From positions 62,001-93,582 of the forward strand of contig NKIB01010367.1 in the NCBI GenBank assembly GCA_002256025.1: a stretch of DNA of 31,582 nucleotides. Direction: 5' to 3'. A program made the position numbers and the translations under genes. This document shows positions 464 to 31,582 of the stretch, piece by piece. Numbering within the stretch: the stretch's first letter is position 1; each line of letters starts with the position of its first letter. This DNA is from Asterionella formosa. Lineage: Eukaryota. The notes beneath the pieces were generated by a model that was not told the DNA's origin, did not search any database, and saw only the letters and a list, made by a program, of their open reading frames with translations.

Positions 464-671
464 TGAAGTGCTTCACTGTCAACGTCGCTCGGAGCGCTCC
501 AATTCGCATTGACTGGTAAAGGATTAGTGAATTGATTTTCAACAGGTCATTCAAACATGTTCAGAAATTTTATATTGCTGTAGGACTCAATAATAACGTA
601 CCGGTACTCGTTTCTTGTTATCTAAAAATGGTAAAATAAATACCGGTACATGCATATGCGTTGGTAAACGA

Positions 672-948
672 TTTTCGCTATTGACCTTACTCTGTCAATT
701 CTCACTGTTTCTTAATTATAAGCTTAAACTAAAACTAAGTTTCAATCCCATTCATCACACTTCGAGAACCTGTTCTTCGTGTTCCCTTTTCGTTGATGTA
801 AACCTTCTTCTGATTGATCTAAGACATCAATCTCGTTAGCAAGCTTCTTGACATGGGAACGCACCATTTGACTCATTGGACTCATTGGACTATAGTCGAG
901 TCCACAGTCCTTGTGACTCATTATAGCCATTGATGCTATATTCTTGAC
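672..948 (-). repeat. ~280-bp dispersed repeat, copy A (inverted relative to 4544-4823)
   Basis: The reverse complement aligns along its length with 4544-4823. Shared blocks include TAATGAGTCACAAGGA, CATGTCAAGAAGCTT and GATGAATGGGATTGAAACTTAGTTTTAGTTTAAGCTTA. Confidence 0.95.
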
Positions 949-1060
949 AGTACCATTCAAGGGTTACTTTCTATTGGGTCCAAATCATGGTAGACCTATT
1001 ATGGGCATGTTCAAAACAAGATATTCCTTAAAATTGAACTGATGATCTGATTGGTTAAAA

Positions 1061-1333
1061 CCAATACAAGATGGATGGAAATAGTAAACCCAATACATGG
1101 TACACCTTGTATTGGATATTAAACCCTCTATTTCGGAGAAACGATTCATACCTTGTATTGGAAAAGAATTCCGGTCATTTCACAAAATACCTTGTATTGA
1201 AAAAAGAGCCTATTTCCTTCTTCTATTGGCAAAAGCACAGATTCGCAACCCTAACGATGAAGCTAGACAATACAAGGTCAACCTTGTTTTGGCAAATTAC
1301 TTTTTCACCTTGTATTGGATTCCAATAAATGGT
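1061..1333. repeat. Cluster of ACCTTGTATTGG 12-mers in both orientations (subterminal-repeat-like)
   Basis: Forward copies or near-copies at 1104, 1150, 1189, 1281 and 1307. Reverse copies at 1061, 1090, 1268 and about 1322. Confidence 0.85.
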
Positions 1334-2262
1334 ATTTTTGTTTCTTGTGTCCCAAGCTGTTGAGTAGAATATCCATCATGTACACAAGAATACGAGTAGG
1401 CAGACTCCTCCTGCATAGGTTGTTCTTAATTAGGTTATTCCCGCTCTGGCTATTGTCTTGCGGATTTTCAGGCTCTAAGTAATTTCTATAATTAAATGAT
1501 GGGCAGCAATAGCAAGCCTTGTAATATTTAAGTAAAATGAGTAGGCAGTCGGTAAGGACATGGTGCCAAAATAGTACTAATTTGTGGATCGCCTCAACAA
1601 AACCCTTCTTGGTGGCTAATCACCTTCTTGTATAGATGTGTAATTGCAGACAAGAGACCAGTCATGGCATATCATGCCTTCAGCAATTCAAAACCAAGTG
1701 ATCAGCACGCTTTTCGCCAATATAGCCCTTTCAAACAACGTTAAATGCATATATTCGATATTTTCTATGTTGATTACTATGTATGATTCCGCAAGCGTGG
1801 AATGCAAAACAGAATACTAATGTACCAACTAAAGTGTACCAGGTGTCTACAGGTGAGTCTTTTTTGTGCTCTGGTCGAGGGGTACCAGGTACCTCCTCTC
1901 GACAATGGCGGAACCCTTCCCCCCTAACAACGGTTTCGGAGCATATCCTACATGTGGCACCTACACCGGCATTTCAAGATTTATTGAATACCGCCGAAAC
2001 AGAGAAATACGACTCTACAATAATCGATTTTGAAGCGGAAATTCACTTTCCTGGCAGTAGAACCTCCGTATAACCCAATCTACAATGACACGAAACAAAA
2101 AGAGACGAATTGCAATGGTGGTACTCTCAAGAACCTCAGCGACAACATATCACGCAAGACGACTACAGAGAAGGGAACAAGCATTAATACTGCCACCGCA
2201 TAGTCGGCGAAGGCGCAAACTCAGCACGAACATCACAAAGATAGGAAATCACACTCCTGAAA

Positions 2263-3440: not shown

Positions 3441-3544
3441 TAAGGAAATGAACTACACTCAAATTACATAGACCTTGACGTGCCTCTACATTTTAACGTT
3501 TATTTTAGAAATCAGTTACAAAACAGTGGAGAAAGCAATCCTAA

Positions 3545-4393
3545 TCACTTTTTAACCAGGGCATCATTTGGGACCTCATCCTCAACCCATGTGAATGCTT
3601 CTGTCAAGTACTTGAATGTGAGACCTCCGAATGAAACCAACAAAAATCCAGCGCCGATTTGCCACGGAATTTCATCATTGTAGAGGACTCCACGAGACAT
3701 TAAAGTGGCCATCAAGGGAATAGAAATGAGAGCAAGTAATTCTGCGTTCATTATCGAAGCCATCCTTCCTGCTAACTTCTCACTCATTGATGGGTACACT
3801 CCATTGTTTCTTTTTTCAATCGCTCGTTGAATAATCTTGGTTGTTGGGAAAAAGGACGAGGCTCCCATTACTCCGAGAAGGGATAGCTTGACCCAAAAAA
3901 GTGGTTCGTACTTATAGAAATCCCAGCCCTTTCCGTACTCAGTGACTCGTAAATAACCCGAACCAGTCAAGAGCACAGCAGCAAGTCCATACACGGTGTC
4001 AGCAACTGTCAAAGTATCTTGATCTTCCTCTGACATGCCAGATTTGATGAGAAGACGTTCAGTTACGAGACAACCAGCTGAGACAATAATGGAAGCGTAG
4101 TGAACGTATGCCACCAAGGCACTGATCAAAGGAAACATGGCGCCTTGTGAGGCAGCCTCCGCTGGGAGACTGGAAAAAAGAACGACCATGGCAGGCGTGG
4201 CACCAACAACGGTAACGATTGCCCGCTTTTCATTTTCGCCCATCACCTCATCAAAGATGTCATTTTTGCTGGCGCCCAATGCGACATTCAGAGATTGTAG
4301 CGCTCTATGAGTACTGGGGCGGGGTCTAGTTGGGGAGAACGCGGAACTGGAGACCGCATAGGAAAGGAAGGAAAGGCTCATAAGTCGAACCAT
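3545..4393 (-). CDS. Plastid-targeted DUF2214-family multi-pass membrane protein (282 aa, intronless)
   Basis: Signal peptide plus SSA-FSP (ASAFAP-type) motif and an S/T/R-rich transit peptide. DUF2214-like motifs: AYVHY, ERLLIK, ADTVYGLAA, GYLRVTEYGKGWDFY..EPLFWVK, SFFPT, ELLALISIPLMATLMSRGV. Confidence 0.88.
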   Translation of the reverse strand: MVRLMSLSFLSYAVSSSAFSPTRPRPSTHRALQSLNVALGASKNDIFDEVMGENEKRAIVTVVGATPAMVVLFSSLPAEAASQGAMFPLISALVAYVHYASIIVSAGCLVTERLLIKSGMSEEDQDTLTVADTVYGLAAVLLTGSGYLRVTEYGKGWDFYKYEPLFWVKLSLLGVMGASSFFPTTKIIQRAIEKRNNGVYPSMSEKLAGRMASIMNAELLALISIPLMATLMSRGVLYNDEIPWQIGAGFLLVSFGGLTFKYLTEAFTWVEDEVPNDALVKK

Positions 4394-4543
4394 GGTGGTC
4401 GGAGCTTGAAAATCATTTGATGTACTGGTAATACTGGGATGATAGCTGAAACCATTATACGTACAGTCTATAATTGGTATACATGTAAATGGTACCAGGT
4501 CCCTCGTACCTGGTACGGAGTAGTAATATATTCAACTACGAAT

Positions 4544-4823
4544 GTTAAGAATATAGAGCATTTATTGCTACCGGTATAATGAGTCACAAGGATTGTGGAC
4601 TCGATTACCCGGTATAGTCCAATGAGTCAATGGTGAACATGTCAAGAAGCTTCCTAATGAGATTGATGTTTTAGATCATCAGACGAAGGTTTGCATCAAC
4701 GAAAAGGGAAAACAAAGAACAGGTTCTCAAAGTGCGATGAATGGGATTGAAACTTAGTTTTAGTTTAAGCTTAAAATTAAGAAACAGTGAGAATTGACCA
4801 CAGAGTAAGGTCAACAGCGAAAA
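4544..4823 (+). repeat. ~280-bp dispersed repeat, copy B, carrying two TA-duplicating micro-insertions
   Basis: Aligns with the reverse complement of 672-948. It has an extra CCGGTA at 4571-4576 and an extra CCCGGTA at 4608-4614. Confidence 0.95.
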
Positions 4824-5099
4824 CTAGCATGAAGGCTAGCAGCAAAAGATATTAGTACTAGTGGTACAACAGGTAAGACCTACGTAAGAGGATACACGTC
4901 AGAAAGGAAGGAGTACGTGAACATTTAACACGCTTTAAAGCGACGCTTTGAGGCCACAGGCTATTCAGGAACGATGGGAAGAAGTGACAAAGACACATCT
5001 GTGAGGTTGCCAAGCAACGTTTGATGGCTGGGCCAGATGCTAAATGGCACATCTGGAAAGCAAAGTTTCTCGCATAAATGTGCTACAAGAACTTTCAAG

Positions 5100-6120: not shown

Positions 6121-7334
6121 CTACATTAATCCTATTTCAAGCAGTTCATGTCGTTGGCACAACACAGTAGCTGGAGGCTGCCTAAACCCATTGTTGGTGA
6201 CAACATCAAGAATGGCAATTGGCCAAGTTTGTGAAGTACCTTGTACTACATCCAATTTCCTGAAAGATGGAAGATAATCCAACACAAGAGGAGCATTGGG
6301 CATTGAATCAACAAGCTCCAAACTAGAAAGAAATTCAAAACCACTACCAACTTCCTTATTTCTTTCATCATCCATAAGTAGGCAAAATTTGTGTAAGCGG
6401 GCACAAGCAGGCCAGAAAGAATAGCAACTGGTTTCTTCAGGCTGAAGGACAAGGATGTCCTCAGGATCCTCTATTTATTGGTAAGCAAACCAAACATCAT
6501 CTCAATTATAATGCGTAGTTGTAAAAGAAAAAAGCTGTATGCATCTTTCTTTGATGATTCCCTTTGATTTCCAACAAAGGGACAGAAGACTTAATCAGTC
6601 AGTGTGTAAGCAGCATCACCTACTATGTATTGTCCTGGACAAAGTTTGGATGCAATCTGAGAAAGCTGTGTTCTTTCAAATGCCTTCTGATCTGGACATT
6701 TTCCTGGTGCCACAATAACAAAGTATTGGAAACAACAATTACTGTTGCAAATAGCTTGAACATTCGTTCCATACAACACATAATGCCCAGACCAATATGC
6801 TTGAGGGAAGCCATCACAATCCTTTTTTCTTGGTTTGGCAATAGGCTGTATATACCCATTTATAGCACCAATGCATCCACGAAATAGTTGCTCCTCGCCT
6901 TTTTCAAGAAATCCATTCATCACTTCTTGTTTCTGATTGTTTGTTGCAGGTAAGTGAATTGATAATGCTGTGCAGGAGTTCACTGTATCAAGGGATGTTT
7001 TAGTGATTGCATAAACAGATGGATAAGAAACTCCATAGATGTGACAAATGTCTATGAGGTTTCCGCCTGCAAGCAAGCCAGCAATGGCCAATTGTGAGGA
7101 TCAACTCAGGATAAATATGCTGATTAGTGCTATATAAATCTTAAATTGCATTTTATTTGACAGCATCAACTGCAATGGAATATTGAAAGCTTGAAGAGAC
7201 ATGAAATGACACCTATCCTTGTGGAGAAGCTTTGTAACATGATCATTCCAGCCAGTTAAGATGTTGATGATCCCATCTTGCTGATCACGCTGGCTTCGAG
7301 TTTTGTCCATAGGACTCCAAAAATGACAATGCAA
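6121..7334 (-). pseudogene. PIF/Harbinger (DDE_Tnp_4, HARBI1-like) transposase pseudogene
   Basis: WNDHVTKLLH..., LAGGNLIDICHIYGVS, FRGCIGAINGY (GAIDG with D->N), YWSGHYVLYGTNVQAICNS, APGKCPDQKAF, YIVGDAAYTLTD*, DAYSFFLLQLRIIIEMMFGLLTNK*RIL. In-frame stops and frameshifts. Confidence 0.93.
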
Positions 7335-7887: not shown

Positions 7888-10173
7888 TTAGTTTCCGGCA
7901 TTCGTTTCGTACAAAATATTTGGACTAAAACTGTATGAAATTCGAGTGTAGTTGTGTTCCCATGATGGATCAAAGTTGGCAAATAGAATGTCATCATTGC
8001 AAGTTTTGTTTCTGTCCTGGCAGCATAACTTGCAACATGGACAAGTTATTTCAACACTCCCCGGTACACAATCAGCGCTCAAAAAGTAAATGCTCCTTGA
8101 TTTGGAACAAAAATCTGTAAGATCGCCAATGAACTTGTTTTTATCCAGCAAGAACATGGTTAAATCGGTCAGTTGCGACACTTTGGGAGAAATGGTACCA
8201 TTAAATCTGTTCCGATTCAAAAGTAAGTATCGTAGATTGGTAAGTTCCCAAAGAGTTTCGGGAATAGTACCTGACAAATGATTGTTACTCAGGTCCAACA
8301 AAATTAATGATGACAGATTACCCAACCAATTTGGGATTTCTCCAGTTCGGTGAGCTTGCCCCAGACTGAGCTCACGCAACTTTGTTAAGCCCGAAAAAAA
8401 ATCGTAACTGGGAATTGCTGCTGGTCTAAAGTCGTTGCTGCTTAAGAATAAGTAAGTAAGATTTTGCAAGGACCCGATGGCTTGGGTGATTGTTCCATTC
8501 AATTTATTGGAAGTCAAGTCCAAGTGCGCCAAGCTCTTAAGATTCTCAATTGAAGCTGGCACAGATCCAGTTAAGCTATTCTGATATAGAGAAAGGAAGG
8601 ACAAAGCAGTATTCTCCGCCACGAATTCTGGAATGCTTCCGCCAATTTTGTTGTTGTGCACATCTAAGATGGTCAAGGATTTTCGTTGGAAGAGGTGAGC
8701 CGGCAAGTTACCAGTTAACAAATTCCCAGAAATGTCCAAGTTAACGAGTGCTCCAAGATTGGCCAAGAACGTATCATCCATACGGCCGGAAAGCATGTTG
8801 TCATCAAGGTAGAGATACTCCAAATTGGAAAGTTCATTGATCATTTGCATCTCTCCATAAAAACGGTTTCCCTCCAACGCCAACGTCTTGAGTAATGTTG
8901 CCTGGCCTAAGGAGTTTGGAATCTCTCCAGTTAGTTCGTTCCCAGTTAAAGCACAGACGGTCAACTTGGAGAGAGCAGATCCGATCCAATCAGGCAACTT
9001 CTCAGTGAGGGAATTGAACCTCAAGTCGAAAAAATTAAGCTTGGTCAATTTTTGAAAAGAGTCTGGGATGGAACCAGCAATCTTATTGCGCTTGATATCG
9101 AGGAAATCAAGAGTGGTCATGAAAGAAAGTTCCGTCGGGAGGGTGCCTCGTAACTCGTTGTCGGCTGAAAACACAGGGATCAATATTAAACTTGGTTAGC
9201 AAGTAAACAAAGCAATTACCATACACTCGCTTGAAGCCTCATCCATTCACTTACGAATCAATATAGAATCCACCTGGCTGTATTCGTTACAGCTTGCACC
9301 TACTGCAAATTCCGCACCAGTCGTCAAGGTAACTTTATTTGCCCAATTGCAATGATGCGTTGGCGTCAGGAATTTCAATTGATCATTCCACGATGGTCCA
9401 TCCAGGGAGTAGTAAAAGACAGTCAAGATGTAGCGGTGCAAAAAATTCAGACCTTCTTCAGTCCCGATTGATTGGGGAATTCCCATTGCCAAAGCATCAG
9501 TGTTAGCCAAAAACAAGGCAGCCAAAAATTGCGGGGTACCCTCATTATTGAAATCGCCTGGGGTTGAAACGCCGTTTTGAACAAAAAACTCCATTGTGTC
9601 AGAGAGACGAGTTGAATAGGTGGTAGAAGAGGTGGGGGTAGATGGAGCACTGGTGGTTAACCCGACAGGTGCGGATGGAGCACTCGTTGTTGATCCGGCA
9701 AATGCGGCTTCTGCAGACGAGGCTTTGCTCTTGTTCTTGGATGCACCAACGGCAATGCCCAGAATGATAGAAACCAGAACAATGAATGCAAGTACCAAGA
9801 GCCAGTAGCGCTTACTGGACCTCTGCCTTTGTGTGTCGAATCTAATCGTTTCCGTCCTGTGGCTCATTTGATCCGTCAATCGCACGGTTTCCAACTTCGG
9901 CGACGAGTTCAAGATTCGTCCAGCATACAGCCGAGCTTCGTCGACGCTTGGAAGCTGATCGTGAATGACGGTGGCGTCATCTGAGTCATAGACGAAGGCT
10001 CGTAGGTTTCGTTCAGAACGGGCCGATGGTCGTTCTGCTTCTTCCAGGAGGCGAGCAGCATTCGTTCGCACTTGTTCGGCCGCATTCGCTGGTACCACAC
10101 GCCATGGACGAGACGGCGGGGCTTCACCGGGATCAATCGCGTTGGGGGTTTGATATGCTTTGGCGGGCAACAT
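7888..10173 (-). CDS. Type II membrane leucine-rich-repeat protein (diatom receptor-like LRR family, no kinase domain), 2 exons
   Basis: Exons 10173(or in-frame ATG 10326)-9255 and 9164-7888. The 90-bp intron 9254-9165 (GTAAGT...GCTAAC...TTTCAG) joins ILI-P-DNELRGTLPTEL in frame. Single TM (YWLLVLAFIVLVSIILGIAVG), S/T/P-rich stalk, PQxxA...RYILTVFYYSLDG..W...C.W cap, many LxxLxLxxNxLxGxIP repeats and a C-terminal ADC...CPCCKLCC motif. Confidence 0.92.
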
Positions 10174-10536
10174 GGGGAGGACTTTGTGCAGGTAACGAGT
10201 TTGGTTGTGCGTGCGAGAATAGTGGTGATGATGTGGATTATTTGCCGGATCATGGACGCCTCGAGTCCTGACTTTAGATGAGAGCGGGCACGACCGGGAT
10301 GAGGGCTTTATTAAATTGCAGAACATATTTCATTGCTTTGCATAGCTACATGCATCCTGTGTATTCCGTACGTATGGTGGGCAAGCAGCAAATTATGTCG
10401 AGCTAATCTATTATCATTATTTGTGCATACAGAATTTTTAATTATGTTTTATTATGAATATGTAAATGTATATATATGATATTGGAATATATTTACGATA
10501 GGTGACAAAACAACGTACCCGGCGACCATATTGATG

Positions 10537-10895
10537 TACCGGTATGTAGTCCAGCTCGGCTTAAAAATACATAATTATATGTCGTATGGTGGAGACGTGG
10601 AGACTACCTGGTACCTGGGTATCAACTGTAATATGCCGGTATATAGCATCACTTATACTGAGGAACCCTTCAAACGACCAGGTGCATCCTTAAAGTGCAA
10701 CATACTACCGGTACATATGTCATGTAGGAATGTGAACAAACACATACTGTATGTAGGCTACAAGCTTTTCTCATAGTGAGTACCGGTATATTTTTTTAAT
10801 TTTTATTATTTACTGAACGTACTACCGGTACTGTACCGGTAGTCTATTTTACATCATTGGTTCTGAAAAATGTTTACCGGTAGCTACTACCGGTA
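10537..10895. repeat. Dense cluster of TACCGGTA / TACCTGGTA words upstream of the LRR gene (putative transposon excision footprints)
   Basis: TACCGGTA at 10537, 10706, 10781, 10823, 10834, 10875 and 10888. TACCTGGTA at 10605. Confidence 0.85.
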
Positions 10896-11039
10896 TTTCT
10901 CCAAATTTGTCAACAGTATAAGTAACGGTAGTTTTGCCACGACAGCATTGCAGCAGTAGCACTATCCATGATAACAATTTTGTTTACGTATTACCTTTAG
11001 TCATGAAATTTATTAACAAGGGGGGCTAGCGGTAGCATA

Positions 11040-12502
11040 CTGGAAGGTCTGGTAATCAGCGCATTTGGCTTGCAGGTGGCTCATTTTCTGGTCATAGATT
11101 CACATGCGAAAAAATGCAGGGGTACATCCCCCAAAAATTGTCTGACACCTAAATTTTGCGCCACCCCATTATCTTTAAATAATTGTTTGCATAAACATTA
11201 AGCCGTTATTCGGTTTATGGTCAAACTGTACTTTAAGTCAGCAGTCAGCAAGTTGAAGTTAGCAGTCAGTGATTTTATGTCAGCAAATGAAGTCAGCAGT
11301 CAGCGAGTTTTTCAAATTTTTGCGAATCAGTTAGCAGTCAGAAAAACGAAGTCCACAGACAGTAGTTAGCAACTTGAAGTCATCATGATTTTTATTAGAG
11401 AATTTAAGATCATGCATACTGGTAGTGAAATGAAGAAGTAGATAGCAATGACTATTTAACATGTATTATTACCTCTGTGTTACTCCCAATAACAGGTACT
11501 AGCTATGGTAGTAGAGAATGCTTCAGTATCCTACAACGAAAAGATGCGTTTCCATTGTTATTCAAGAGAAACAGCAATTGAAAATGTTGTTTTTCCTTTT
11601 CTTGTGCAGAACCCCCCAGTTCTAACTTGTGTCCGAGTTTTCAAACAAGAGAGGATATGATGCAAGATGCAATGCATTGTAAAGTGATCTCTGTGGTGCT
11701 CCAATGCGGTATGTGTAGTTGGTATTGATTTGATGCATTTGCGCTAGTTCTGTCAGAAAAATTTCGTCTTCATGCAAACCATATAATATTTTCTAACCGT
11801 CACATATAAAAATAATTGCATGTATGGTAAAATTTTAATCAATGGCTTTGAGCCACTTCGACCGTTTTTGTCACTTTTAGAATGGATAGATCTCAGTTAA
11901 TATATGTTCAAGTAAAAAATGATCTAATTCTCATGTAGCTTAATGACTAACTAATATCGTGCCAAAAAGGCGAGAGAGAGGATCGACTTTAGCAAAATTC
12001 TAGAATAAGTCGGAAAACGATATAATAACGTGGCTCAAAGCCATTTATAACTTTTACCCCATAAATAAATAAAGAACTTTTATTCCAAAATATGGAAAGT
12101 CCATGAAAAATGAAAATTAAACACAATTCGTACTATAGTAGGTTTCTTCCTACCCAGTAGGTTGCTTGAAGTCAGCAAGTTAAAGTTAGTAGTCAGCGAT
12201 TTCAAGTCACTTGATAGAAAATGAACTCAGCAGTCAGCGAATATTTCAAATTTTCAGCAAATCAAGTCAACATTTAGCAAAATGAAGTCCGCAGTCAGCA
12301 AGTTGAAGATGATAGTCAGCGATTCTGCTGTGAAAGGTGGAAGCGCTTTCAGTTTGAAACTTTGAAAGAGTTACAGGTAATATAAATGCATGGAAATATT
12401 TTAAATTTGAGCTGGTCAGGCTATCAATGAATTAGGTTGAAACCGCTAAGTGAAATTTCTAGTTTAATATGCGCGCAATCCGCTGATTACCGGACTTCCT
12501 GG
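11040..12502. mobile_element. ~1.46-kb non-autonomous TIR element with a probable TA target (Tc1/mariner/pogo-like)
   Basis: Left end TA|CTGGAAGGTCTGGTAATCAGCGCATT. Right end, reverse-complemented, CCAGGAAGTCCGGTAATCAGCGGATT, followed by TG. The five mismatches in the first 22 nt are all transitions. Internal GTCAGCA-rich ~150-bp direct repeats (about 11237-11390 and 12168-12325) and an internal inverted repeat. No ORF. Confidence 0.75.
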
Positions 12503-12701
12503 TGAATTAAATTTGATTCTTATGTAGTACATAGAGGTCCAATCCTCACCCGAATGGCTGTAAGTATTGATTCCCACAACACATCGACCATTATTTGAGT
12601 ACCGGTATGCTGGTACCTTGTTAACAGGAGTACCAGGAAGGATCCGGTAGCGTACCTTTTATGCGCACTTCTTCTGTTTCGACTCACTCCCACTGAGTCG
12701 T

Positions 12702-12995: not shown

Positions 12996-13082
12996 GTCGT
13001 AGTCAGCAATTTCTAGTCATTGTCAGCAAAATCTAGTCGTTGTCAGCACCTTCTAATCGTTGTTGGCAGATTTCTAGTCGTA
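12996..13082. repeat. Minisatellite, about 4.3 copies of a 20-bp unit (GTCGTTGTCAGCANNTTCTA)
   Basis: Units start at 12996, 13016, 13036, 13056 and 13077. They share the GTCAGCA core with the neighbouring TIR element. Confidence 0.9.
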
Positions 13083-13886
13083 TGTAGTCCTCACCAGCCA
13101 CTGGATTAGTACCATAAACAAAAGAGTCATTTTACAAATTTCAATGGACTATTAATTGATATTCTTATATAGAGAGAATCAAACAAAAGTTGGTTCGAAT
13201 TACAGACTGCCCTAGAGTAGAGTGTCGCATACTGTGAAAGTGTTAAATCTCTCGTGGTAACTTCGTCATTTTGAATTGTGCATCATCTCAAGTACATGAA
13301 GAAATGCGCCATCGGCAACTTCAATTTTTGTTGTTAATATTAGTGTTTTTACAGTTATTTTTTTGCGATTGTATAATTCATGTTGTGTTAGATATATTTA
13401 ACAATAGCAAATCATCATTCTCGTTTTCCGAGACAGAGACAGCATGATGCAGGATTCTGCAGCCGCTCACAAGAACTACTCTTACACTGTAGTGTTTGAT
13501 AAATAGAAACAAATCGCAACATCTAAGCTAAAAAACTAGATATACTCGCGTCTACAAGGGCTACCTCGGATACCCTGAAAATCTATCCTATGTAGCCATA
13601 GTATATGTGATAATCATGTGATTTTTCATAACCCTAATGTAATCAGAAGTTCGTTTGCTGCTTAAGTTTAAGCAGGAAGTCAGATTCCTGCTTCCGTTAA
13701 AAGCTTCCTCATGGGGAAGGCCAGCGTGCATGCATTTCGCCATGCCGGCCCATCCCAAACGATCTTAAAGTATAATGCCTTAAGTTTTTGCGGCAAATTT
13801 TGATACGTGTATCAAAAATTCACTTCGATGTGTACAAGCACGTTTTCCGTATATCCCTGGTACCTGGTACTGGGAATACATGCTTA

Positions 13887-14622
13887 CCAGGGAAGGTGAG
13901 GTAATTGCGCCTACTACTGCGCGATTTTTTGGTTTCAGCCCGCCTGCAGGGCTTTACAACTACAATTGACCGTTGGAATCGGCTGTCTTCCCAGCCAATG
14001 TTCCTTCCAAGTTAATTGAATTTGTAACCGCATTTAGTGATTTGGCGTTTGCTCCTTCATAAACCCTCCAATTTGCTCACTACACGAAATTTTTGCTCAT
14101 CGCTGAAAAAATTTCCTCAACGAAAGTTAGCACGGTTTAGCAGTTATTAACTTTTCTTAATTGCGGTTATAATTTGAATTTCCTTAATAAAAAACATTGG
14201 CTAGCCGAAACTTTAATTATCAAGCAGGAATGGAAGTCTTAGAACTTACACAGCATCCAACCCTGTTGGGACAATTAACTTGTGGACCATTTATGATTGA
14301 ACAAGTGCATTGCAATGGAAAAATTACTATTTGCAGAAATGCTAATGTGGAGGATCGGATTTATATCTGGAATGTTCGGCTTTCTCATTGAAGCTTCTCT
14401 GGATTCTCGAATTGAGGCTTACCTCTGGGTTTACAAACTAGTTTTAAATTCTCATAGTTTCTGTTTTACAATTATTTGTAGACTGGATTACCTTAGGGTT
14501 GTTTAATACTAGTACAGACATTGGATACAGCAAGTTGCGATCATTTTGCTTGAATAAAAAGTTTATTATCGGAGAAAGGGAGCTAAATATTGAGCTTCAG
14601 CAGAATTACCGCAACTTGCAGG
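13887..14622. mobile_element. Putative 736-bp TA-flanked non-autonomous element with CC...GG ends
   Basis: Left end TA|CCAGGGAAGGTGAGGTAATT. Right end, reverse-complemented, TA|CCTGCAAGTTGCGGTAATT. The TIRs are imperfect and resemble those of the 11040-12502 element. Confidence 0.5.
14197..14391 (+). pseudogene. Ty3/Gypsy integrase C-terminal (GPY/F module) remnant
   Basis: FNYQAGMEVLELTQHPTLLGQLTCGPFMIEQVHCNGKITICRNANVEDRIYIWNVR matches the Gypsy pol tail pattern Y..G..VL......KL.....GP(Y/F).I..VH.NGT..I.......R.NIR. A purine tract GGAGAAAGGGAG at 14571-14582 may be a PPT. Confidence 0.8.
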
Positions 14623-15234
14623 TATGTACGTAAGGCTATTGGGCCGACAATAGGTATAATGCCGGCTGCACATCCATCAAAGAAACAATCGTCATTGTTA
14701 ACGCATCACTTTCATGCATTATCACTTCAGTTCTACCGGACAAAATACCAGGATTATGTGTACCTCCACTGCTGAACAATCGTCCGGTTTTTTAGAAAAT
14801 GATCAAACTGTTAATCATCAAGACGAACAAGGTGAAGCTAGTGATTTTCGGTTGAAGTTATAGTGAAGATCACCTTCACGGTGTTCTCCCAGACGATTGT
14901 CTGGTACCTGCCTGGTAGTAGATCGTAGTAGCATCCTGCCAAAGGCTAAATTAATTTATAGAATCCTGTGTTGTGTTCACGGATCAGTTTTTCGTGAGTT
15001 CAAGTCATTCTTTTGGCAAATGCTTGTTGTGTTTGGTAGGCCTGCCTGCAGTAAGTCATTGAATAGTTGATGCAGGTTGAAATGCACAAGCTAAGCAAGT
15101 TAAGGAAAGGTAAAGCATGTTTCATAATATTAATATATATGTTTATTTTTTTTATTTGCTACTACAATATTATTTGCTTCCTTTTGTCACAAATCTTTCC
15201 CTTCCTTCCATCATGTCCACAGAACTTGGCTATA

Positions 15235-16230: not shown

Positions 16231-16740
16231 TCATACAAGTTGTTCTTCATAATGACCTAATTACCTAGCAAATCAAAACAGTAAATTTTGTACTTTTTGT
16301 ACTGTTGGTGCCGCTTAAATCTTAGCAGTAGGCCAAAAATTTTCGATCTGAATTGATGATTATTGTCATGATGTGAGATCATATCAAACACCTCGAAATA
16401 GCATGACTCTTGTACTGCTAGCTAGTAAAAATGCTAGTCACATGGTGCATTGAGTGTTTTTGAACCGTTCAAATTCATGCACGATTTCATACATGCATTC
16501 TGTATTTATTGTTCGTGGCCGTGTTTCGACATCACGTATGGCATACGAACGGATTCTGGATTCCGTCCTGTGGTACTTTCGTGTGTAGAATTCATTGTAT
16601 GTAGCCTGTTCATATCTCACCTACATAAATGTCGAAGTGTCCGGTAAAACTGAAATGCAACTCATCAGCAGCCATCCAGAGTCGTACTTGATACCATGGT
16701 ACCATGAAGCTGTACCGGTACTTTCATTGCTGTCGCTTCC

Positions 16741-17658: not shown

Positions 17659-18248
17659 TGCCATTTGTATGCGTATTGCAGCGATTGGGACATGATTTCA
17701 TAATTAAAATACATTAAACGTCAGCTGAAGAATTGCCATTGCCGATTAGGTGAGGGGGGATTGATACTGTTGTGTCCAATTCATGTGGTATCAGATTTGA
17801 TTAATGTCTCATGACAACATTCACGAAGCACAGCCAACGTGTCATTCTCCTAACTAGGTTCCGTTGATATTGTATCAACAAATCTTGTTCGTGCTCGCCC
17901 ACTTACAACGGAGCTCCTATCTACACGACTTGGTATTGATTGTTGAACGAGGAAAACTAATTTTGCAATAAATGAATCTGTTGGAAATCGCTCAAATTCA
18001 CCTACTTACAACGGAGTCCATGACTTAAATTATGCCGTTCCGTCTCGCGTTAGGAGGGCCCACCAATACATTAGAATACCTTTCTTCTTGGAGATGATGT
18101 AATGGCACGGGGTACTCCAACCCCCTTGTACCTGTTAATCAAATTTTTCTTGACAGCCTTTTTTAAACTGGGATAGACGAGAAAGAAAAGAAAACCTCCA
18201 TACTTCCAATTAGAAAATAGCGTTCGTAACGTGTGTTAATACCTCTAA

Positions 18249-19496
18249 CTAATCAATCAAGACACCAGCTTTCGTCTGGAAGTATTTTGGCACAGACACT
18301 CGCCCAGCAAAGTCCATGACCTGACCCAACAAAATTTTCCCTACAGTTAAATCTGGATTCTTTTCCAGCAATTGATCAATGCTGCCATCAAAAAAGTCGT
18401 TGTATCCAGAGAGCAAATCCATCAATCCATCGAATTGTCTTGATAACCACTTCGTTAAGCCACCGTCGAGAAGTTGTCTCAAATTGATCGTTTCCTTCGG
18501 AGGCACGACTGCTTCTCCGGACAGTCCCAAAATGGCATCAAAGATTAGATTCTTCTCGTTCGGATCTAAATCTTTTACCATACTTGCTAAAAGGTCATTC
18601 ATTTGAGAAGAGTCCTTCAAGGCACCCTGGACCATAGTGCCCACGCTTTCCTTATCGACGCAAACATCATCGTCTGGCGAACGTTGATGCTCTGCGAGGT
18701 AGTGATGAGACGAAGGCACGTCTTGGAGTATTGGAAGCATTTCTTGAATCATACGAGTTATTTTGGTAGATTTTTTCAAGGTGTGGATCAATTGGTTCGG
18801 ATCCTGTCTTACTCCTAGTAGTGAACGCATGGTGTTCACCTTAGCATGCACATGATACTGTCGAGCAACGTCTGGCTTGAGCTTGATCTCAGCAGTTGCT
18901 GGACATACTGGCGGATCTCTTGCTACAGTATAGTTTCGTTTGCGTTGGGTATTTAGTATCTCGTCGAGTTGAGCCCAGTCCACATTTGACGACTTGACGG
19001 CTGCCAGAGACGTCAAGGCCCGATGAAATAGTTCTTGGAGAGTATCCGAGGGGGTTTCAGTTATCGATTGTTGACTGAAAAGTGCTTCAAGTGCAATCAA
19101 GTCTGGTTTTTCAAATTCAATCTCTCGCTTCTCTGGTCTCTTGCTCCCTACCAAATTGGAATTATACTGCAGCAATTGTACCCTTTGAATGACTTTCGAT
19201 ACAACCAATGCTTGTTGCTCTTCACTCGCTGATAGCCTCAATGTTAGATTCAACGAGCGATTTCTAAGCTTTTCAATCGTTTGAATTATCTCTTCTACGC
19301 GAGAATCTGGTTGAGATTCTTCTTCTATACTCTGTTCAATAACTTTGACGGGAACGACGATGGGAGTCCTTTCTATGGGCGCTGGATGAACCGAGTTCCA
19401 TATCCATAGCAAGTATCCCATACTAAGCAAGACATTCGCAATTAACAAGAGAATTAGCCCCTTGGCAGCGGCGCGACGAGCTGTGGGCTCGGACAT
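18249..19496 (-). CDS. Hypothetical 415-aa protein with an N-terminal membrane anchor and coiled-coil segments
   Basis: Long intronless ORF. Hydrophobic GLILLLIANVLLSMGYLLWIW near the N-terminus, then heptad-like VEEIIQTIEKLRNRSLNLTLRL. No family recognised. Confidence 0.8.
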   Translation of the reverse strand: MSEPTARRAAAKGLILLLIANVLLSMGYLLWIWNSVHPAPIERTPIVVPVKVIEQSIEEESQPDSRVEEIIQTIEKLRNRSLNLTLRLSASEEQQALVVSKVIQRVQLLQYNSNLVGSKRPEKREIEFEKPDLIALEALFSQQSITETPSDTLQELFHRALTSLAAVKSSNVDWAQLDEILNTQRKRNYTVARDPPVCPATAEIKLKPDVARQYHVHAKVNTMRSLLGVRQDPNQLIHTLKKSTKITRMIQEMLPILQDVPSSHHYLAEHQRSPDDDVCVDKESVGTMVQGALKDSSQMNDLLASMVKDLDPNEKNLIFDAILGLSGEAVVPPKETINLRQLLDGGLTKWLSRQFDGLMDLLSGYNDFFDGSIDQLLEKNPDLTVGKILLGQVMDFAGRVSVPKYFQTKAGVLID

Positions 19497-19921
19497 GATA
19501 AAATTAAAAGTTGGCAGCTTGAGTGAGAAGGATAGAAGGTAGGGACCTGTTCAGCATAATCATCAAGTTTTACAGCGATCTGTGCTCAACAACTGATCTC
19601 ACAAAAAGTCTGAATCTGCTGCATTTTTAAACCACTGTAAGCGAATCAGAAAAATTTGCACCATAAATGTTTCGAGGCCAAATGTTTTGAAATGGTCCGT
19701 ACACCTTCCCGGGGGCTGGATTTCTCTTCACGCACGAAGTCTCTCACGTGCTCGTAGTAGTACCTAGTACCACCTAAAAACTGCTTTGAACCTCTATCGA
19801 AATTATTTAACCGCCTTGAACCTCTATACGTAGAATAACACGTTTTGTCACGAATTTCGGATAGTTTTTTACAAATCTGAAACGATCCATCTGAAGCTGA
19901 GCATGTAGCACTTCTCTATGT

Positions 19922-23496: not shown

Positions 23497-23670
23497 TGAT
23501 CGCTGACTGCTAGCTTCCACTTGCTGACAGCTGACTTAAAGAACAGTTTGACCATAAACTACTAATGGCTGAACGATTATGCAAACAATAATTTAAGAAA
23601 AACAGAGTGGTGCAAAATTCAGGGGTTTGGGGGGGGGTGTACGCCTACCTTTTTTTGCATGTGAATTTAT
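23497..23670 (-). repeat. Inverted partial copy of the 11040-12502 element (its ~11094-11273 segment)
   Basis: The reverse complement shares ATTCACATGC.AAAAAA, TTAAAT.ATTGTTTGCATAA and GTTTATGGTCAAACTGT.CTTTAAGTCAGC.GTCAGCAAGT.GAAG.TAGCAGTCAG. Confidence 0.9.
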
Positions 23671-23976
23671 GCATAACAAGAAAACGAGCAACCTGCGCGC
23701 GATGTGCGATGATTACTGGACCTTTCTCCAGTTGAAGAAAGAATGACGCAAGGCAGAACAGAACCAGACAACAAGAAAATGATGTTTGTCTGCGTCGATT
23801 TGTTGACAAACAGAGAGATCACAGACAATGGGACAAAAATACACTTGATTGTGAACGTCATTCAAAATCGAAATGAGGCAAAACAGATTTCATGCATCCT
23901 CATGATGATATGTCTACTACCAGTGCCCGGTATATTGTCAATTGACTCCATACTGTCTGTCTAATTCTTGATCACC

Positions 23977-27175: not shown

Positions 27176-28195
27176 ATGGGTAATTCCCAGCCAACGAATA
27201 AAACAGGCCGAAAGGTTGTTCTACAGGTAAGATACATTGCTTCATCAGGCAACACTGCGCCCTAGTTCCGATTTCTCACTCCAATATCCAGAAACTGGAG
27301 AATGCGAAAAAGACTGGCATTTTGTCCCTGAGCGAGCATAGTCTCGAGATTATACCCGATCAGGTTTACGAGTAAGTTCATCCCAGGTATTCAATCGGGG
27401 CAAAGAACATGGCAGTACTTCGAAAATGATCTTTTCAATGTCTGATACTCCTCTCGCTTTCCGGTGCGCAGGATCCAAACTTTAAAATCACTCGATATTT
27501 CAAAAAATAATCTAAAATCTCTGGGGAAATTATCTACTCTGACCAACCTGAAAACAATTCACTGCGAAGACAATAAACTTTGTGCTGGAACCTTGGTGCC
27601 AGTATCCACATTAAAAAATCTCCAAAACTTGTATTGTGGAGGCAACCGGCTTGGGCGAAAATCAGAAATGGAAGCTGGAAACCCCACCAAGGTGGATCCT
27701 CTCCCTATTTTGCCGGTTAGTCTGAAGCTATTAATTTGCGATCGAAACTCGTTAGGCACTGTCCCTCGGTCCATTGTCAGCAATGTATTAATAAAGCTTG
27801 AAAAGCTCGATCTCTCGGACAACCTATTGGCGGCCATCCCCGAAGACATTTCCAATTTGAAAGCTCTGAATGAGTTAAATCTCAACAATAACATAATTGT
27901 GTCACTTCCAGAAAGCATTGGTCAACTATCAAAATTAAAATCGCTCTCGTTAAAGGGAAACAAGATATCTGTTCACAGTACCACCTTCTCGGTCACCAAT
28001 CCGCAACCGCTTCCCGCCTCGCTCTTTTCGCAGACTCCATTGATTGATTTGAATTTGCACGGAAATCCCATGACGTCAACACAGCTGAATCAGATGGAGG
28101 GCTTTTCTGTGTTTTTGGAACGACGCGAAAAGGTCAAAACAAAGGATTTGTATGGAGGTGCCATGACGAGTTATGATGTATGTGGACTTGAATGA
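27176..28195 (+). CDS. LRRC57-like leucine-rich-repeat protein, probably N-myristoylated (284 aa, 3 exons)
   Basis: Exons 27176-27226, 27292-27371 and 27472-28195, with GT-AG introns of 65 and 100 bp. The spliced N-terminus MGNSQPTNKTGRKVVLQKLENAKKTGILSLSEHSL recalls LRRC57 (MGNS...AxKTG..xL). The C-terminal LNLHGNP...LNQMEGFSVFLER also fits. Confidence 0.88.
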
Positions 28196-28247
28196 ATGAA
28201 AATATTTTATAATATCTAATTAGGTGAGCTACTTAAAGCTCTCTAGG

Positions 28248-28622
28248 CTAGCATCTCCCACCATTTTGGATAGGACTACATACACCTTCTCCGTAGTCCG
28301 TGAGAGACGGAACAATCACACCAACCACAAGCAGAGCCAAAATGACGACAATCAAGGATCCTGCAACAATTTTGGATATCAACGGGTCCGTATTTGTCTC
28401 CAAAGCCTTGTCAAGGTCGTATTCGTCTTCATTATCGGGGATCCCAAGCTGTTGCCGGCGTTTGCTGGATATTATCTTCCTCTTCTCCGCTGCCTTGCGC
28501 TCACTCCTGGAGTATTGATTGCTCAACGCATGTCGACTTGTGTGGCAAAGGGGCAAAAAACCAAGTGTCACTAGGGGTGACAAAAGTACCCAAAGAGTAA
28601 ACAGAGACTTCCTCATAGGCAT
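28248..28622 (-). CDS. Small single-TM protein, probably plastid-targeted (122-124 aa)
   Basis: Signal-like LFTLWVLLSPLVTLG-FLP, a basic transit-like segment, acidic DNEDEYDLD, TM KIVAGSLIVVILALLVVGVIVP and a C-terminal CxPxxxGGRC. Start at 28622 or 28616. Confidence 0.78.
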   Translation of the reverse strand: MPMRKSLFTLWVLLSPLVTLGFLPLCHTSRHALSNQYSRSERKAAEKRKIISSKRRQQLGIPDNEDEYDLDKALETNTDPLISKIVAGSLIVVILALLVVGVIVPSLTDYGEGVCSPIQNGGRC

Positions 28623-28794
28623 TGTGGTTAGCTAAGTGCGTGTCAATTTGTGAATTTGTGTTGGGTTTCGTCGACGGATGTATGGAGGGATGAAGGGGAG
28701 GTCCGATGGCAAAATCCAAGAGCAATACCCGCTACATACGTATTGGCCAACCAGACGTGTGTCGTCCTAATGATCTCATCAATCCTCATACCCG

Positions 28795-28875
28795 GACCAG
28801 GTACCTGGTACCTGGTACTAGATGTAACAGGGTACATGGTACCTGGTACCTTGTACGAGGTACCAGTACCAGGTA
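28795..28875. repeat. Cluster of concatenated TACCWGGTA-type words in a divergent promoter region
   Basis: TACCTGGTA at 28802, 28809 and 28840, TACCAGTA at 28861, TACCAGGTA at 28867. Another TACCTGGTA at 29150. Confidence 0.85.
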
Positions 28876-29555
28876 ACATGAGACGATAAATAGTATGCGT
28901 ACCTGCGTACGGTATCTAGACAACGCACGACGTAAAAATAATTGTCCGCGCCATAGTTTGCTTCTTCATTGGTTTTCGTTCTGCTACCTGGTTACTCACT
29001 TTTCTACTTACGGAATACCGCTGTACAGACATAGCAAATATGCATTGCTTTCGCGTTGCTGCCTCTTGCGCGATCACCATCGGGCAGCAGCCGAAAATTG
29101 ACCTGGTATCATTGCTTCATACTCCATCATGCAGTGGTGGTACTCCAGGTACCTGGTACCTGTACCCTGTTACTGCTGCGATTCACGCCACCATTTCCAG
29201 TTTGCTTTCTTTACATTGTAAAAGTCGTATGATACACCATCCCAAACTTAATTCACACGGCATTTCAGTTATGGATACCACCCTGAGTCGATCACCTCTT
29301 CGACTAACGGTACTGTATACGGTATACGAATCCCTTTAAATCAGTTAACTCCTCTAGTGTATAGCCACAGTCTTGTAGATTTGTGAAGAAGAAATGGTGA
29401 GCAGAAGGGAACATTCCATGTTAGCATGTCAGTCCCATCATATGCATCCTCACACACCCCATCACTCCCTACCGGTAACCGGTATGCCCACAATAACCGA
29501 CTCAACGCATGAATAATAAAAGTCATCAGGATCGAACCAACATCAATTATCAAAA

Positions 29556-29969
29556 ATGGAAGAAGAAGAAATTAATTACGTATTTTCTTTATTCGACCCA
29601 GATTCCCAGAACCGCATTTCCGTCCAGGACGTGCGGGCAGCCATCCAGGGTGTGGGAGGAAGCAAGGGAATGGACTTGTTGGAACGTTTGCCTCACGATG
29701 GGACCTTGAGCATGGACGAGTTCCAAGCCATAGTATCACAGAAAGAGAAGATTGGAGACATGCAGCGCATCTTTTCACTCTTCGATGCCGATCAAAAGGG
29801 TTACATATCATTGGAGGACTTGCAGCGAATTGCTGACGACTTGGGAGAATCTATGACAGATGAAGAGCTTCAGGATATGCTGGACCGGGCAGATCCAGAT
29901 CAAGATGGACGAGTCACTGCGGAAGATTTTTCGAAACTCATGACCAAGAAACTATTTACTCGAGAGTAG
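29556..29969 (+). CDS. Centrin/caltractin-like EF-hand protein (137 aa)
   Basis: The C-lobe FSLFDADQKGYISLEDLQRIADDLGESMTDEELQDMLDRADPDQDGRV matches the centrin pattern L.RVA.ELGE.MTDEELQEM. The N-lobe is shortened and degenerate. Confidence 0.88.
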   Translation: MEEEEINYVFSLFDPDSQNRISVQDVRAAIQGVGGSKGMDLLERLPHDGTLSMDEFQAIVSQKEKIGDMQRIFSLFDADQKGYISLEDLQRIADDLGESMTDEELQDMLDRADPDQDGRVTAEDFSKLMTKKLFTRE

Positions 29970-30078
29970 GGTAGATTGACGATTGTTAAATCCGGTTTCG
30001 ATACGCTTGGCCCTTTGTAGCACTGCAAACGAGCTAAAATTGAGAAAGATTAGCACAGATCGTTCTATTATTCCTTCT

Positions 30079-30793
30079 CTATCGACTGGCGCTAAGTACA
30101 TTTGGGTATTGGTTTACCAACTCAATGACGAAACTTGACGGCGCATGTGCAAATATTGTGCCTGGATACACTGCTGAACCCCACTTGGGATGAGTCAAAA
30201 TCTTGCAGAAGCCAGCATTGTACGATTTGTAGTTCAACAGGCATTCCATACCATCGACTTCGGAGTAGACCTTGTTGCAATCCGCGGTCAACATCGGCAA
30301 ACCGGAACATGGATCAATGAAATCGGCCCAGTAGCCCTTTTCTCGAATTTTCATGCATAATTCTCGTCCAAAGGCGATAAACTGTAAAGAAATTGTATAG
30401 TGTCCATAGACTAGTTTGTTAGTTCGGAACGCTGTTTATCCATGTGCATGACAACGATAAAAGTGACGCCCATCAAACTGACAACGATTTAGAAATGATT
30501 TATGAACCACTCACCACATTCAACAGCCGATCCTTCTCTGCTTCTATGTGTTCTCCAATTGCAACTAAATCATCTTTTGCATGCTGATTCGTTGGGAGTG
30601 CCAAAATATCCAAGCCATCATCGGCCAACACGCCATCTGTCGTGAGGTACTTGTCGGCAAAGACGTGACGAAACTCACGAAGTAGCGGCTTGGGTAATGT
30701 ATGGACCGAACATTCAAGGCCATCGACTGAATCACTTCTCTGGCACAAGACTCGAGGAGCTAGCAGAATTGAGGAGTTGGGGGACGTTGCCAT
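30079..30793 (-). CDS. MMADHC: Cobalamin trafficking protein CblD (MMADHC family), 193 aa, 2 exons
   Basis: Exons 30793-30515 and 30381-30079, with a 133-bp intron GTGAGT...TTTACAG. Motifs EAEKDRLLNVFIAFGRELCMKIREKGYWADFIDPCSGLP and GFCKILTHPKWGSAVYPGTIFAHAP match the MMADHC C-terminal domain. Confidence 0.92.
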
Positions 30794-31582
30794 GTTCAAG
30801 ACAGTCAAAATAGCTAACACCGGTAGCTAGACCCTCTCTGATGTGGTGAAGGATTTTGTTGAGCTTCTTTTTACGGTATAATTACCGGTATATAATTATG
30901 TATTTACCTGGTAATAAACCATAGTTGGTAGATGCTACGTATCTGTAGCTCTCACGCAGTAAAATTTGCTAGAAAAAATGTTTCTACACAATTTGTTTGT
31001 TTTACTTTGTTTGCTAATAATTGTTTTTATAAAAGAGTGAGCTTAATGTAAATGTAAATTTGAATGTATGATTTTGAAACTTCCAAGCTCATGCATGTTT
31101 CAAAATAGAGGTGATCTTCGGAGGCGAGGTTCATTTGTGTTCCCAACTTGAACTGAGAATAAACTACATCCTCTTCCTAAATACACATTTGTCTTAATCT
31201 TGGCCTGTCTCAACTTAGGTCAGATGCTGTTTGATCGAAGACTGCTTACAGAATGATCCTGTTAATCATAACTAGATCATATCTAGTTTGCTTCTTTAAT
31301 GTTCCTTGATGTTGCGGACATATCTGTAATTGTCTAGTCAATCATTTATTGATTTGGCTTCTAGGTCTGATCGTCTTCTAGAGTCCAATTAACAGGTTAG
31401 AGAGAACTTCTCCTGAAAGTTCCTCTCTCAACTGTGGCATTTTACACGCGATATTTAACCATTTGATCTTGAATCAATCATCTAGTGGATTGTGGTACAT
31501 GTTCCTAATCAGGTCACTAGAGGCGAAATATATTGACACTCATAACCTGATCAGGAATCAGGAATCTCTATGTGTTTCAACT

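Follow-up and report, generated by a model that had tools for sequence, protein, structure and literature searches.

The stretch of diatom DNA analysed here (31,582 nt, referred to as the window) raises the question of why short palindromes bounded by TA dinucleotides, chiefly TACCGGTA and TACCWGGTA, are crowded into the DNA upstream of its genes. The first-pass annotation took them to be excision footprints of a Tc1/mariner/pogo-type element with CC(A)...(T)GG ends that repeatedly re-hit open promoter chromatin. The copies of both words and of the rarer forms that it had located were all recovered at the same positions (Table 1), and the counts, flanks and upstream positions confirmed that the words are TA-bounded, restricted to promoters and far more frequent than expected by chance.

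The window contains 14 copies of TACCGGTA and 10 of TACCWGGTA, compared with 0.12 and 0.07 expected from dinucleotide-preserving shuffles, and none of the 100 shuffles reached either count. This enrichment, approximately 100-fold for each word, was counted in favour of a binding site, as was the scarcity of near matches, with each of the 24 one-mismatch variants of TACCGGTA present in 0–3 copies. TACCGGTA is tied for the commonest 8-mer of the window, and the broader TACC-N0-2-GGTA family has 27 copies. TA bounds all 24 exact 8- and 9-mers by definition of the patterns, and T and A flank 14 of the 16 ACCGGT hexamers. Apart from a weak C at +1, similarity among the 14 copies of TACCGGTA does not extend into their flanks. 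A second, unrelated homotypic cluster is also found in the window, consisting of eight copies of CCAATACAAGG in positions 1061–1318, and was likewise counted for a binding-site reading.

Placement was assessed using the 600 nt upstream of each of eight inferred start codons, which together cover 4,533 nt, or 14.4% of the window, and account for 19% of all TA dinucleotides in it. These regions contain 24 of the 27 family members, among them 21 exact 8- or 9-mers (out of 24) and 13 of the 14 copies of TACCGGTA, and seven of the eight ATGs are served. Upstream of genes the density of copies is approximately 30 times that in the rest of the window; the binomial P value for this placement (1e-17) is overstated because the copies are clustered. 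Only three copies (1883, 12600 and 13861) fall in the remaining ~27 kb, which includes large multi-copy tracts (11.1–16.4, 19.1–23.1 and 25.1–27.1 kb), and for the copies at 12600 and 13861 the read data show the surrounding DNA to be multi-copy. Two further genes outside this set of eight ATGs, at about 23.7–25.1 kb and 27.4–28.2 kb, are without a copy because there is none between 16721 and 28795, and copies therefore accompany seven of ten genes. In the 20 kb compared, RNA contigs start at 16717 and 29510, at or 26–40 nt downstream of copies, although the end of a contig gives only an approximate indication of where a transcript starts. The helical phasing of neighbouring copies (R=0.79 at 10.5 nt, n=6) is a weak hint, too weak to use.

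Table 1. Positions of the words and of related features in the window
Feature	Position	Strand	Context
TACCGGTA, 14 copies	599, 641, 4569, 10537, 10706, 10781, 10823, 10834, 10875, 10888, 12600, 16713, 29470, 30883		
TACCWGGTA, 10 copies	1883, 4507, 10605, 13861, 28802, 28809, 28840, 28867, 29150, 30905		
Rarer forms	TACCATGGTA 16692; TACTGGTA 4423, 11417, 12926; TACCAGTA 28861		
Two TACCGGTA (599, 641)	599..648		136 and 178 nt upstream of ATG 463, minus-strand ORF 2–472
Paralogous copy of 4543–4823, inverted	672..949	+	Plain TA opposite 4569 TACCGGTA; TATAG opposite 4606 TATACCGGGTAA
Single TACCAGGTA	1883..1891		GGTACC on either side
DUF2214 gene promoter	4423..4614		ATG 4393, minus; TACTGGTA 4423, TACCTGGTA 4507, TACCGGTA 4569, TACCCGGTA 4606
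Paralogous copy bearing two motif copies	4543..4823	-	Motif copies at 4569 and 4606
Densest cluster (360 nt)	10537..10895		Seven TACCGGTA, one TACCTGGTA, one TACCTGGGTA; 211–562 nt upstream of LRR gene ATG (10326, minus)
TACCGGTA	12600..12607		Multi-copy (repeat) DNA
CCTGGTA heptamer array, 2.1 units (TRF)	13856..13870		Multi-copy DNA
TACCATGGTA and TACCGGTA	16692..16720		40 and 21 nt upstream of DTW-domain gene ATG (16741, plus)
Decayed ACCWGGT heptamer tandem array, ~11 units (11.1; TRF)	28796..28875		Four TACCWGGTA and TACCAGTA; 180–245 nt upstream of minus-strand ORF, ATG 28622
GGTACCT heptamer array, 2.9 units (TRF)	29148..29166		Divergent promoter region
TACCGGTA followed directly by ACCGGTA, 7-nt period	29470..29484		79 nt upstream of EF-hand gene ATG (29556)
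TACCGGTA and TACCTGGTA	30883..30913		90 and 112 nt upstream of MMADHC-like gene ATG (30793, minus)

The reading we favour, with a probability of about one in two, is that the words are promoter-proximal palindromic sites for a putative dimeric factor and that slippage of heptamers has spread the 9-mer form. The cis-element would be TACC-(0 or 1 nt)-GGTA, arranged in homotypic clusters 20–560 nt upstream of start codons, and would be bound by a sequence-specific factor as a dimer. The 9-mer form resides mostly in short (GGTACCW)n heptanucleotide arrays that may grow, shrink and decay as microsatellites do. Candidate readers might include proteins of the grainyhead/CP2 type (AACCGGTT), the RFX type and the bZIP type. 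Among the points counted against this reading are that a single factor must fit spacings of both 0 and 1 nt, or two factors are needed, and that the accessible portions of the oomycete motif literature name no protein that binds the word.

The 8-mer is identical to a motif known from oomycete promoters. TACCGGTA is motif M94 of Phytophthora infestans and is grouped with a sister palindrome, M93 (TACATGTA; PMC3597505); the Table S1 row for M94 gives conservation as yes/no/yes and 0.03–0.22 copies per kb of promoter. Motif streme-5 of Plasmopara halstedii, ATACCGGTAT, is found upstream of 206 genes and was equated with motif-9 of Seidl et al. 2012, GTACCGGTA (PMC10031896). Motif-9 is described as an inverted repeat that precedes 1,284 Phytophthora genes and belongs to the motifs conserved in three species (PMC3520976). 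Our literature searches found no diatom report of the TACCGGTA motif or of diatom transposon footprints, and the literature containing the 8-mer included no promoter-motif title among the matches listed.

Around relatives of the DUF2214 gene in other algae, TACCGGTA was not enriched (3 copies in 628 kb, 2.0 expected), which suggests that it is not a general ochrophyte motif, though the 80 metagenome loci compared share no more than 61% protein identity, too distant for promoter alignment, and do not include the relatives with 75–76% protein identity. One metagenome contig from another alga (L055) carries three copies of TACATGTA and one of TACCGGTA within positions 4082–4367, between divergent ORFs, with a fourth TACATGTA at 5209. 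Other algal contigs have enriched palindromic 8-mers of their own that are not flanked by TA, such as GCGTACGC, GGCATGCC and CGTCGACG, suggesting that lineage-specific palindromes of a promoter type are common.

How isolated copies of the 8-mer arise is a separate matter, for which three routes come into question: the footprint of a transposon, copying templated locally by a neighbouring copy, or precise loss via TA microhomology. Origin by point mutation fails to account for the eight exact 8-mers that lie within 360 nt, where degenerate copies are scarce. The first-pass annotation predicted TA-duplicating insertions of +CCGGTA between paralogues, and the inverted duplication (672–949 and 4543–4823) is the only paralogous pair that covers copies. 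At 4569 the difference has exactly the predicted form, with a clean 6-nt TA-bounded gap in all four usable scoring schemes, although the indel is unpolarised. The copy at 4606 was ambiguous, since reading it as a +7 event requires a further, separate change of a 9-nt repeat unit. A second pair (11044–11273 and 23499–23724) covers no copy. The clean indel at 4569 points to a dedicated mutational process, which a pure binding-site model does not supply.

Contigs of four sequencing runs were compared with the window. Contigs of the second population (X6) are identical to the window over 10400–11178, spanning the densest cluster, and over 28169–29817, and sequences of the same species in other runs are near-identical to it. 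No allelic indel was found at a motif copy among the 12 of 93 rows listed. Eight differences listed in 10644–10749 for contigs of another population (X2) miss the copies, but only about one overlap would be expected and this is uninformative. X2 contigs also differ from the window by exactly +7 letters within 16638–19633 and by −7 within 28773–30399, the sites of the gaps not being placed.

Tc1/mariner transposases duplicate TA and leave 2–3 terminal nucleotides on excision, as seen for Tc1, Mos1 and Sleeping Beauty. A transposon-scar origin of the words is possible but unproven, and we consider it unlikely that they are simply functionless footprints. The TA at both ends of every copy, the T and A flanks of the ACCGGT hexamers and the TA-duplicating 6-nt indel at 4569, with a compatible 7-nt one at 4606, are consistent with footprints, as are the +7 and −7 contigs noted above. 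Abundance specific to the lineage is what would be expected of the lineage's own element, and the oomycete sister word TACATGTA likewise has the structure TA + CA + TG + TA. The footprint interpretation is partly supported, by the TA-bounded words, their upstream bias and the 4569 indel; a parent element, a Tc1/mariner gene and an excess of single-end products did not emerge in the window. There, no element bearing CC(A)...(T)GG termini and TA duplications was detected, and a scan from every TACC or GGTA for pairs 40–12,000 nt apart found no convincing terminal inverted repeat and no pair of TA-bordered CC...GG ends with a matching one. Ends resembling Mos1 (TACCAGGTGT-like) numbered 4 against 1.46 expected in the window and were without a partner, and self-BLAST of the window together with an inverted-repeat search around a Harbinger remnant gave no usable parent element. 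Amongst the 77 window ORFs of at least 70 aa, a Pfam scan found no Tc1/mariner domain, the only transposase match being DDE_Tnp_4 of the PIF/Harbinger type (6594–7100).

Single-end footprint words are common excision products in the systems that have been studied. In the window they are at background (TACCTA 5 observed and 4.35 expected, TAGGTA 5 and 4.46, TACCATA 4 and 1.87, TATGGTA 2 and 1.83, TACCGTA 0 and 0.67), strong enrichment being confined to CC+GG and CC(W)GG, so the ordered series of variants described in the first-pass annotation was not borne out as a graded spectrum. Nor were concatemers produced by re-hitting of a new TA: this predicts a 6-nt period, but the sole adjacent TACCGGTA pair, at 29470, has a period of 7 nt, and the CCWGGTA concatemers are heptamer arrays of a kind also found in bacteria, where three-unit CCWGGTA arrays occur in 84 stretches, often beside arrays of other heptamers. 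Footprints would also be expected outside the upstream regions, which leave 81% of the TA dinucleotides to only 3 of the 27 copies, and the eight exact copies in 360 nt would require eight hits on one promoter; we know of no precedent for such a density of Tc1/mariner footprints. Conservation between species, which had been held to speak against scars, has a partial counterpart in another lineage, as oomycete studies score the word as conserved among promoters of Phytophthora (PMC3597505 and PMC3520976).

A combination of the two readings, in which isolated TACCGGTA copies were born as TA-duplicating scars when a Tc1/mariner-type element with CC...GG ends excised, and were then kept in promoters because of a factor that reads them, with TACATGTA and TACCGGTA of oomycetes sharing this origin, strikes us as quite improbable. 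Both oomycete words, abundant as promoter palindromes, have the form TA-xy-y'x'-TA, and if correct this would be a case of a transposon seeding regulatory sites.

It is very unlikely that the words are neutral low-complexity DNA, in which a (GGTACCW)n microsatellite and its decayed fragments lie in intergenic DNA with no reader protein and no transposon involved. The period-7 arrays found by TRF at 13856, 28796 and 29148, the point-decayed units of the array at 28796–28875 and the bacterial arrays all fit such a view, as does recurrence of the array elsewhere in the same organism, where many contigs of different loci carry it (19 X6 contigs with a loose end at 28818 and 13 with one at 28819); viral contigs scanned for the CCWGGTA array gave 0 matches. 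However, these arrays involve the 9-mer form only. The 14 isolated TACCGGTA copies are not in a heptamer array and form no concatemer with a 6-nt period, and slippage leaves both the upstream restriction and the identity to an oomycete promoter motif unexplained. That the words are the tips of inverted repeats from miniature transposable elements of a decayed family can be largely dismissed, as the TACCGGTA flanks have nothing extended in common, none of the window's repeat families has the word at its end and the cluster at 10537–10895 is single-copy DNA, even though the window is rich in multi-copy DNA and sequence ending at 14624 joins the array directly in other repeat copies (at least 10 X2 contigs, with short sides of 20–25 letters).

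To our knowledge, diatoms have few known cis-regulatory words. A sharp palindrome with approximately 3 copies per kb of upstream DNA, present at seven of ten genes in a random window and identical to an oomycete motif, provides a handle for finding the cognate factor and allows one to ask whether a regulator-site pair is common to stramenopiles. The single clean TA-bounded 6-nt indel sharpens the question of how exact copies of a word arise.

Three known systems bear comparison. Like Tc1/mariner footprints, the words have TA on either side of a 4–5 nt palindromic core and one 6-nt difference between paralogues takes the form of a TA-duplicating insertion; unlike footprints, they are promoter-restricted, with single-end forms unenriched and neither parent element nor gene in the window. 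Heptanucleotide tandem repeats are known in prokaryotes, such as the STRR repeats of cyanobacteria. The diatom arrays resemble these in their head-to-tail 7-nt units and share the GGTACCW unit with the 84 bacterial stretches, but are short (2–11 units) and are found in eukaryotic promoters beside an isolated palindromic 8-mer that does not belong to the heptamer repeats. In the oomycete reports, M94/motif-9 is the same 8-mer palindrome, abundant and over-represented upstream of genes, and is treated as the inverted-repeat site of a putative factor in another stramenopile lineage. The sister word TACATGTA is not enriched in the diatom window (1 copy). In contrast to M94 (0.03–0.22 per kb), TACCGGTA is more than 10 times denser in the diatom, where 4.5 kb of upstream sequence holds 13 copies, and, unlike in oomycetes, it occurs together with a 9-mer form and with heptamer arrays.

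The words under study are real, sharp and promoter-restricted. The palindromic 8-mer TACCGGTA occurs 14 times in the window against 0.12 expected, and the 9-mer form TACCWGGTA 10 times against 0.07 expected, both counts being matched by 0 of 100 shuffles. The first-pass annotation had placed every one of these copies correctly, and the rarer forms that it listed were also present at their positions. TACCGGTA is a sharp word, which ties for the most frequent 8-mer of the window; T and A flanks are found on 14 of the 16 ACCGGT hexamers, and the 24 one-mismatch variants have 0-3 copies apiece. When start codons were inferred from ORFs, Pfam matches and RNA contigs, 24 of the 27 copies of TACC-N0-2-GGTA were found no more than 600 nt upstream of an inferred ATG, at distances of 21-562 nt, with 7 of 8 ATGs served. 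Together these upstream intervals cover 14.4 % of the sequence and 19 % of its TA dinucleotides, and the nominal P for the placement is inflated because the copies are clustered. Copies accompany 7 of 10 genes; those lacking them are the one at 18249-19550 and the two at about 23.7-25.1 kb and 27.4-28.2 kb, outside the set with an inferred ATG. Only 3 copies were found in the remaining roughly 27 kb, despite much AT-rich non-coding and repeated DNA there, and the promoter restriction is roughly 30-fold. The palindrome TACGTA is also over-represented in the window (12 occurrences, 3.3 expected) and possibly represents a separate site with an ACGT core, outside the series proposed for the other words.

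The window belongs to the nuclear genome of a diatom-like alga. Relatives of its DUF2214 ORF that carry source names are from diatom transcriptomes, the top match being 98 % identical, and the public runs containing the stretch are labelled as lake, freshwater or algae metagenomes. Contig depth placed the multi-copy DNA at 11.1-16.4, 19.1-23.1 and 25.1-27.1 kb, with the gene-bearing parts single-copy. The segment 19071-23072, where summed contig depth in the public run X2 reaches up to about 300x the single-copy level, is a very high-copy repeat family and had no protein-family match. Inside the multi-copy DNA, GTCAGCA-containing units are repeated at 11230-11400, 12170-12330, 12996-13081 and 23499-23560 with tandem periods of 21, 34 and 20 nt, and inverted copies are found at 11044-11273 and 23499-23724. 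No terminal inverted repeats were recognisable near the transposase fragment.

Features of the window, and examples of heptamer arrays on prokaryote contigs
Feature	Position	Strand	Remarks
DUF2214 membrane protein	3548-4393	minus	ORF, domain match
PIF/Harbinger-type transposase fragment	6594-7100	minus	decayed; DDE_Tnp_4, E 4e-8
LRR protein	7888-10329	minus
Heptamer array	13856		2.1 units
DTW-domain protein	16741-17658	plus
RNA-supported ORF	18249-19550
RNA-supported ORF	about 23.7-25.1 kb
Second LRR protein	27446-28195	plus
RNA-supported ORF	28248-28631
Heptamer array	28796-28875		decayed; about 11 units
Heptamer array	29148		2.9 units
EF-hand protein	29556-29969	plus
MMADHC-like protein	30082-30826	minus
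Bacterial array	L101:1544-1594
Bacterial array	L135:10001-10023

The words had been read as excision footprints of a TA-targeting transposon of the Tc1/mariner/pogo type, and the strongest support for this came from a comparison of paralogues. Self-comparison revealed four paralogous pairs, but copies are covered by one alone, the inverted duplication 672-949/4543-4823. Here, CATTATACCGGTAGC in the 4.5-kb paralogue faces CATTATAGC in the other, and global alignment produced a clean 6-nt gap at this site in all four scoring schemes that yielded a real alignment, which has exactly the form of a TA-duplicating +CCGGTA or of a loss made precise by the flanking TAs. At 4606, the second copy (TACCCGGTA) faces TATAG and fits a 7-nt event only with a separate adjoining 9-nt repeat-unit difference; the aligner prefers mismatches there, and this case was therefore counted as ambiguous. 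The comparison thus yields one clean TA-bounded indel (n=1 of one or two cases), unpolarised in direction, which is far too specific for a random indel. The duplication spans about 280 nt at 85 % identity (BLAST), with blocks up to 94 %, and its two halves enclose the gene for DUF2214 together with about 3.6 kb of DNA. The 672-949 paralogue adjoins a second homotypic cluster (1061-1318), with 8 copies of CCAATACAAGG in 260 nt (0-1 mismatch, both orientations) and 9 in the whole window against 0.64 expected.

Against footprints stand the roughly 30-fold promoter restriction and several further results. No TACC...GGTA pair spaced 40-12,000 nt in the window had a convincing inverted repeat, no element with the postulated CC(A)...(T)GG ends was found in the window, and a Tc1/mariner domain was absent from its 77 ORFs. 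In place of the ordered resection series that had been described there are two sharp words, with single-end retention words at background frequency. Re-hitting of the new TA predicts a 6-nt period, but the sole abutting TACCGGTA pair, at 29470, has a period of 7 nt.

Alleles were compared on contigs of four runs. None of the 12 indels listed, from a total of 93, was at a motif copy, and X6, from another population, is identical to the window over the main cluster and 28.2-29.8 kb. Against the window, two contigs of X2 show length differences of exactly +7 letters (within 16638-19633) and exactly -7 letters (within 28773-30399); located no more closely than these spans, the differences fit one heptamer unit gained or lost.

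Two kinds of copy can be distinguished. The 8-mer is dispersed in unique sequence, as in the seven copies at 10537-10895, with nothing common in the flanks other than a weak C preference at +1. The 9-mer form is mostly within head-to-tail heptamer arrays, and its flanks read CC..GG for this reason. Other loci of this organism have such arrays too, as many contigs show. Loose X6 contig ends fall at the array (19 at 28818 and 13 at 28819), and 14624 is joined to 28796-28832 in at least 10 X2 contigs. Elsewhere in the genome, copies of the repeat at 14600-14630, and likewise one RNA contig, pass from the sequence that ends ...GCAGGTA at 14622-14624 straight into a GGTACCWGG array, where the window itself has TGTACG; the matching sides of the alternative joins are just 20-25 letters.

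When prokaryotes were scanned at one genome per species, 84 bacterial stretches proved to contain the three-unit heptamer array TACCWGGTACCWGGTACCWGGTA, with about 0.07 matches expected by our own arithmetic under uniform composition, though the scan covered this one heptamer unit and the count says nothing on its being special. Some Gemmatimonadaceae, Acidimicrobiia, Deltaproteobacteria and Chitinophaga MAGs contain several per genome. In context these are plain tandem arrays of the heptamer, and arrays of different heptamers often adjoin them directly; in L135 a long hairpin has the array at its centre. No eukaryotic TA-targeting transposon is thus needed for concatemers of the unit to arise. 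The arrays look like a class of heptanucleotide repeats that has been described little or not at all.

Judged from a single metagenome scan, the abundance of the words is lineage-specific. The scan gave 80 loci with DUF2214 relatives, all at 61 % identity or lower, and in their 628 kb TACCGGTA was found 3 times (2.0 expected) and TACCWGGTA 0 times (0.5 expected). Several of these contigs have enriched palindromic 8-mers of their own, without TA ends (GCGTACGC, GGCATGCC and CGTCGACG). L055, a contig from another alga, has four TACATGTA and one TACCGGTA, with four of the five within 4082-4367, between divergent ORFs; that interval contains three TACATGTA, two of them overlapping as TACATGTACATGTA, plus TACCGGTA.

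The best-supported reading, to which we assign a probability of about 0.5, is that the palindrome is a putative binding site and the diatom counterpart of the oomycete motif M94/motif-9. A putative factor, probably dimeric, would bind it in promoters, and the 9-mer form would multiply through heptamer slippage. Excision footprints in pure form are unlikely, and a hybrid, in which transposon scars seed sites later read by a factor, is rather improbable. Pure microsatellite drift is very doubtful and accounts for parts only, as do transposon-tip remnants, which are highly improbable.

We found no report in the literature of TACCGGTA as a diatom promoter motif. In the oomycete Phytophthora infestans it is catalogued as promoter motif M94, named beside its sister palindrome M93, TACATGTA, which has 4,150 promoter occurrences (PMC3597505). 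Table S1 of that paper gives TACCGGTA an over-representation P down to 1e-4, conservation of yes/no/yes and 0.03-0.22 copies per kb. In Plasmopara halstedii, 206 genes have ATACCGGTAT upstream, a sequence equated with motif-9 of Seidl et al., GTACCGGTA (PMC10031896). According to Seidl et al., motif-9 is an inverted repeat that 1,284 genes have upstream, and it is among the motifs conserved in upstream regions of three Phytophthora species (PMC3520976). The available parts of these papers name no binding factor for M94/motif-9. The palindromes TACATGTA and TACCGGTA of L055 are M93 and M94 of P. infestans. Oomycetes are stramenopiles too, and their M94 8-mer is identical to TACCGGTA of the diatom window.
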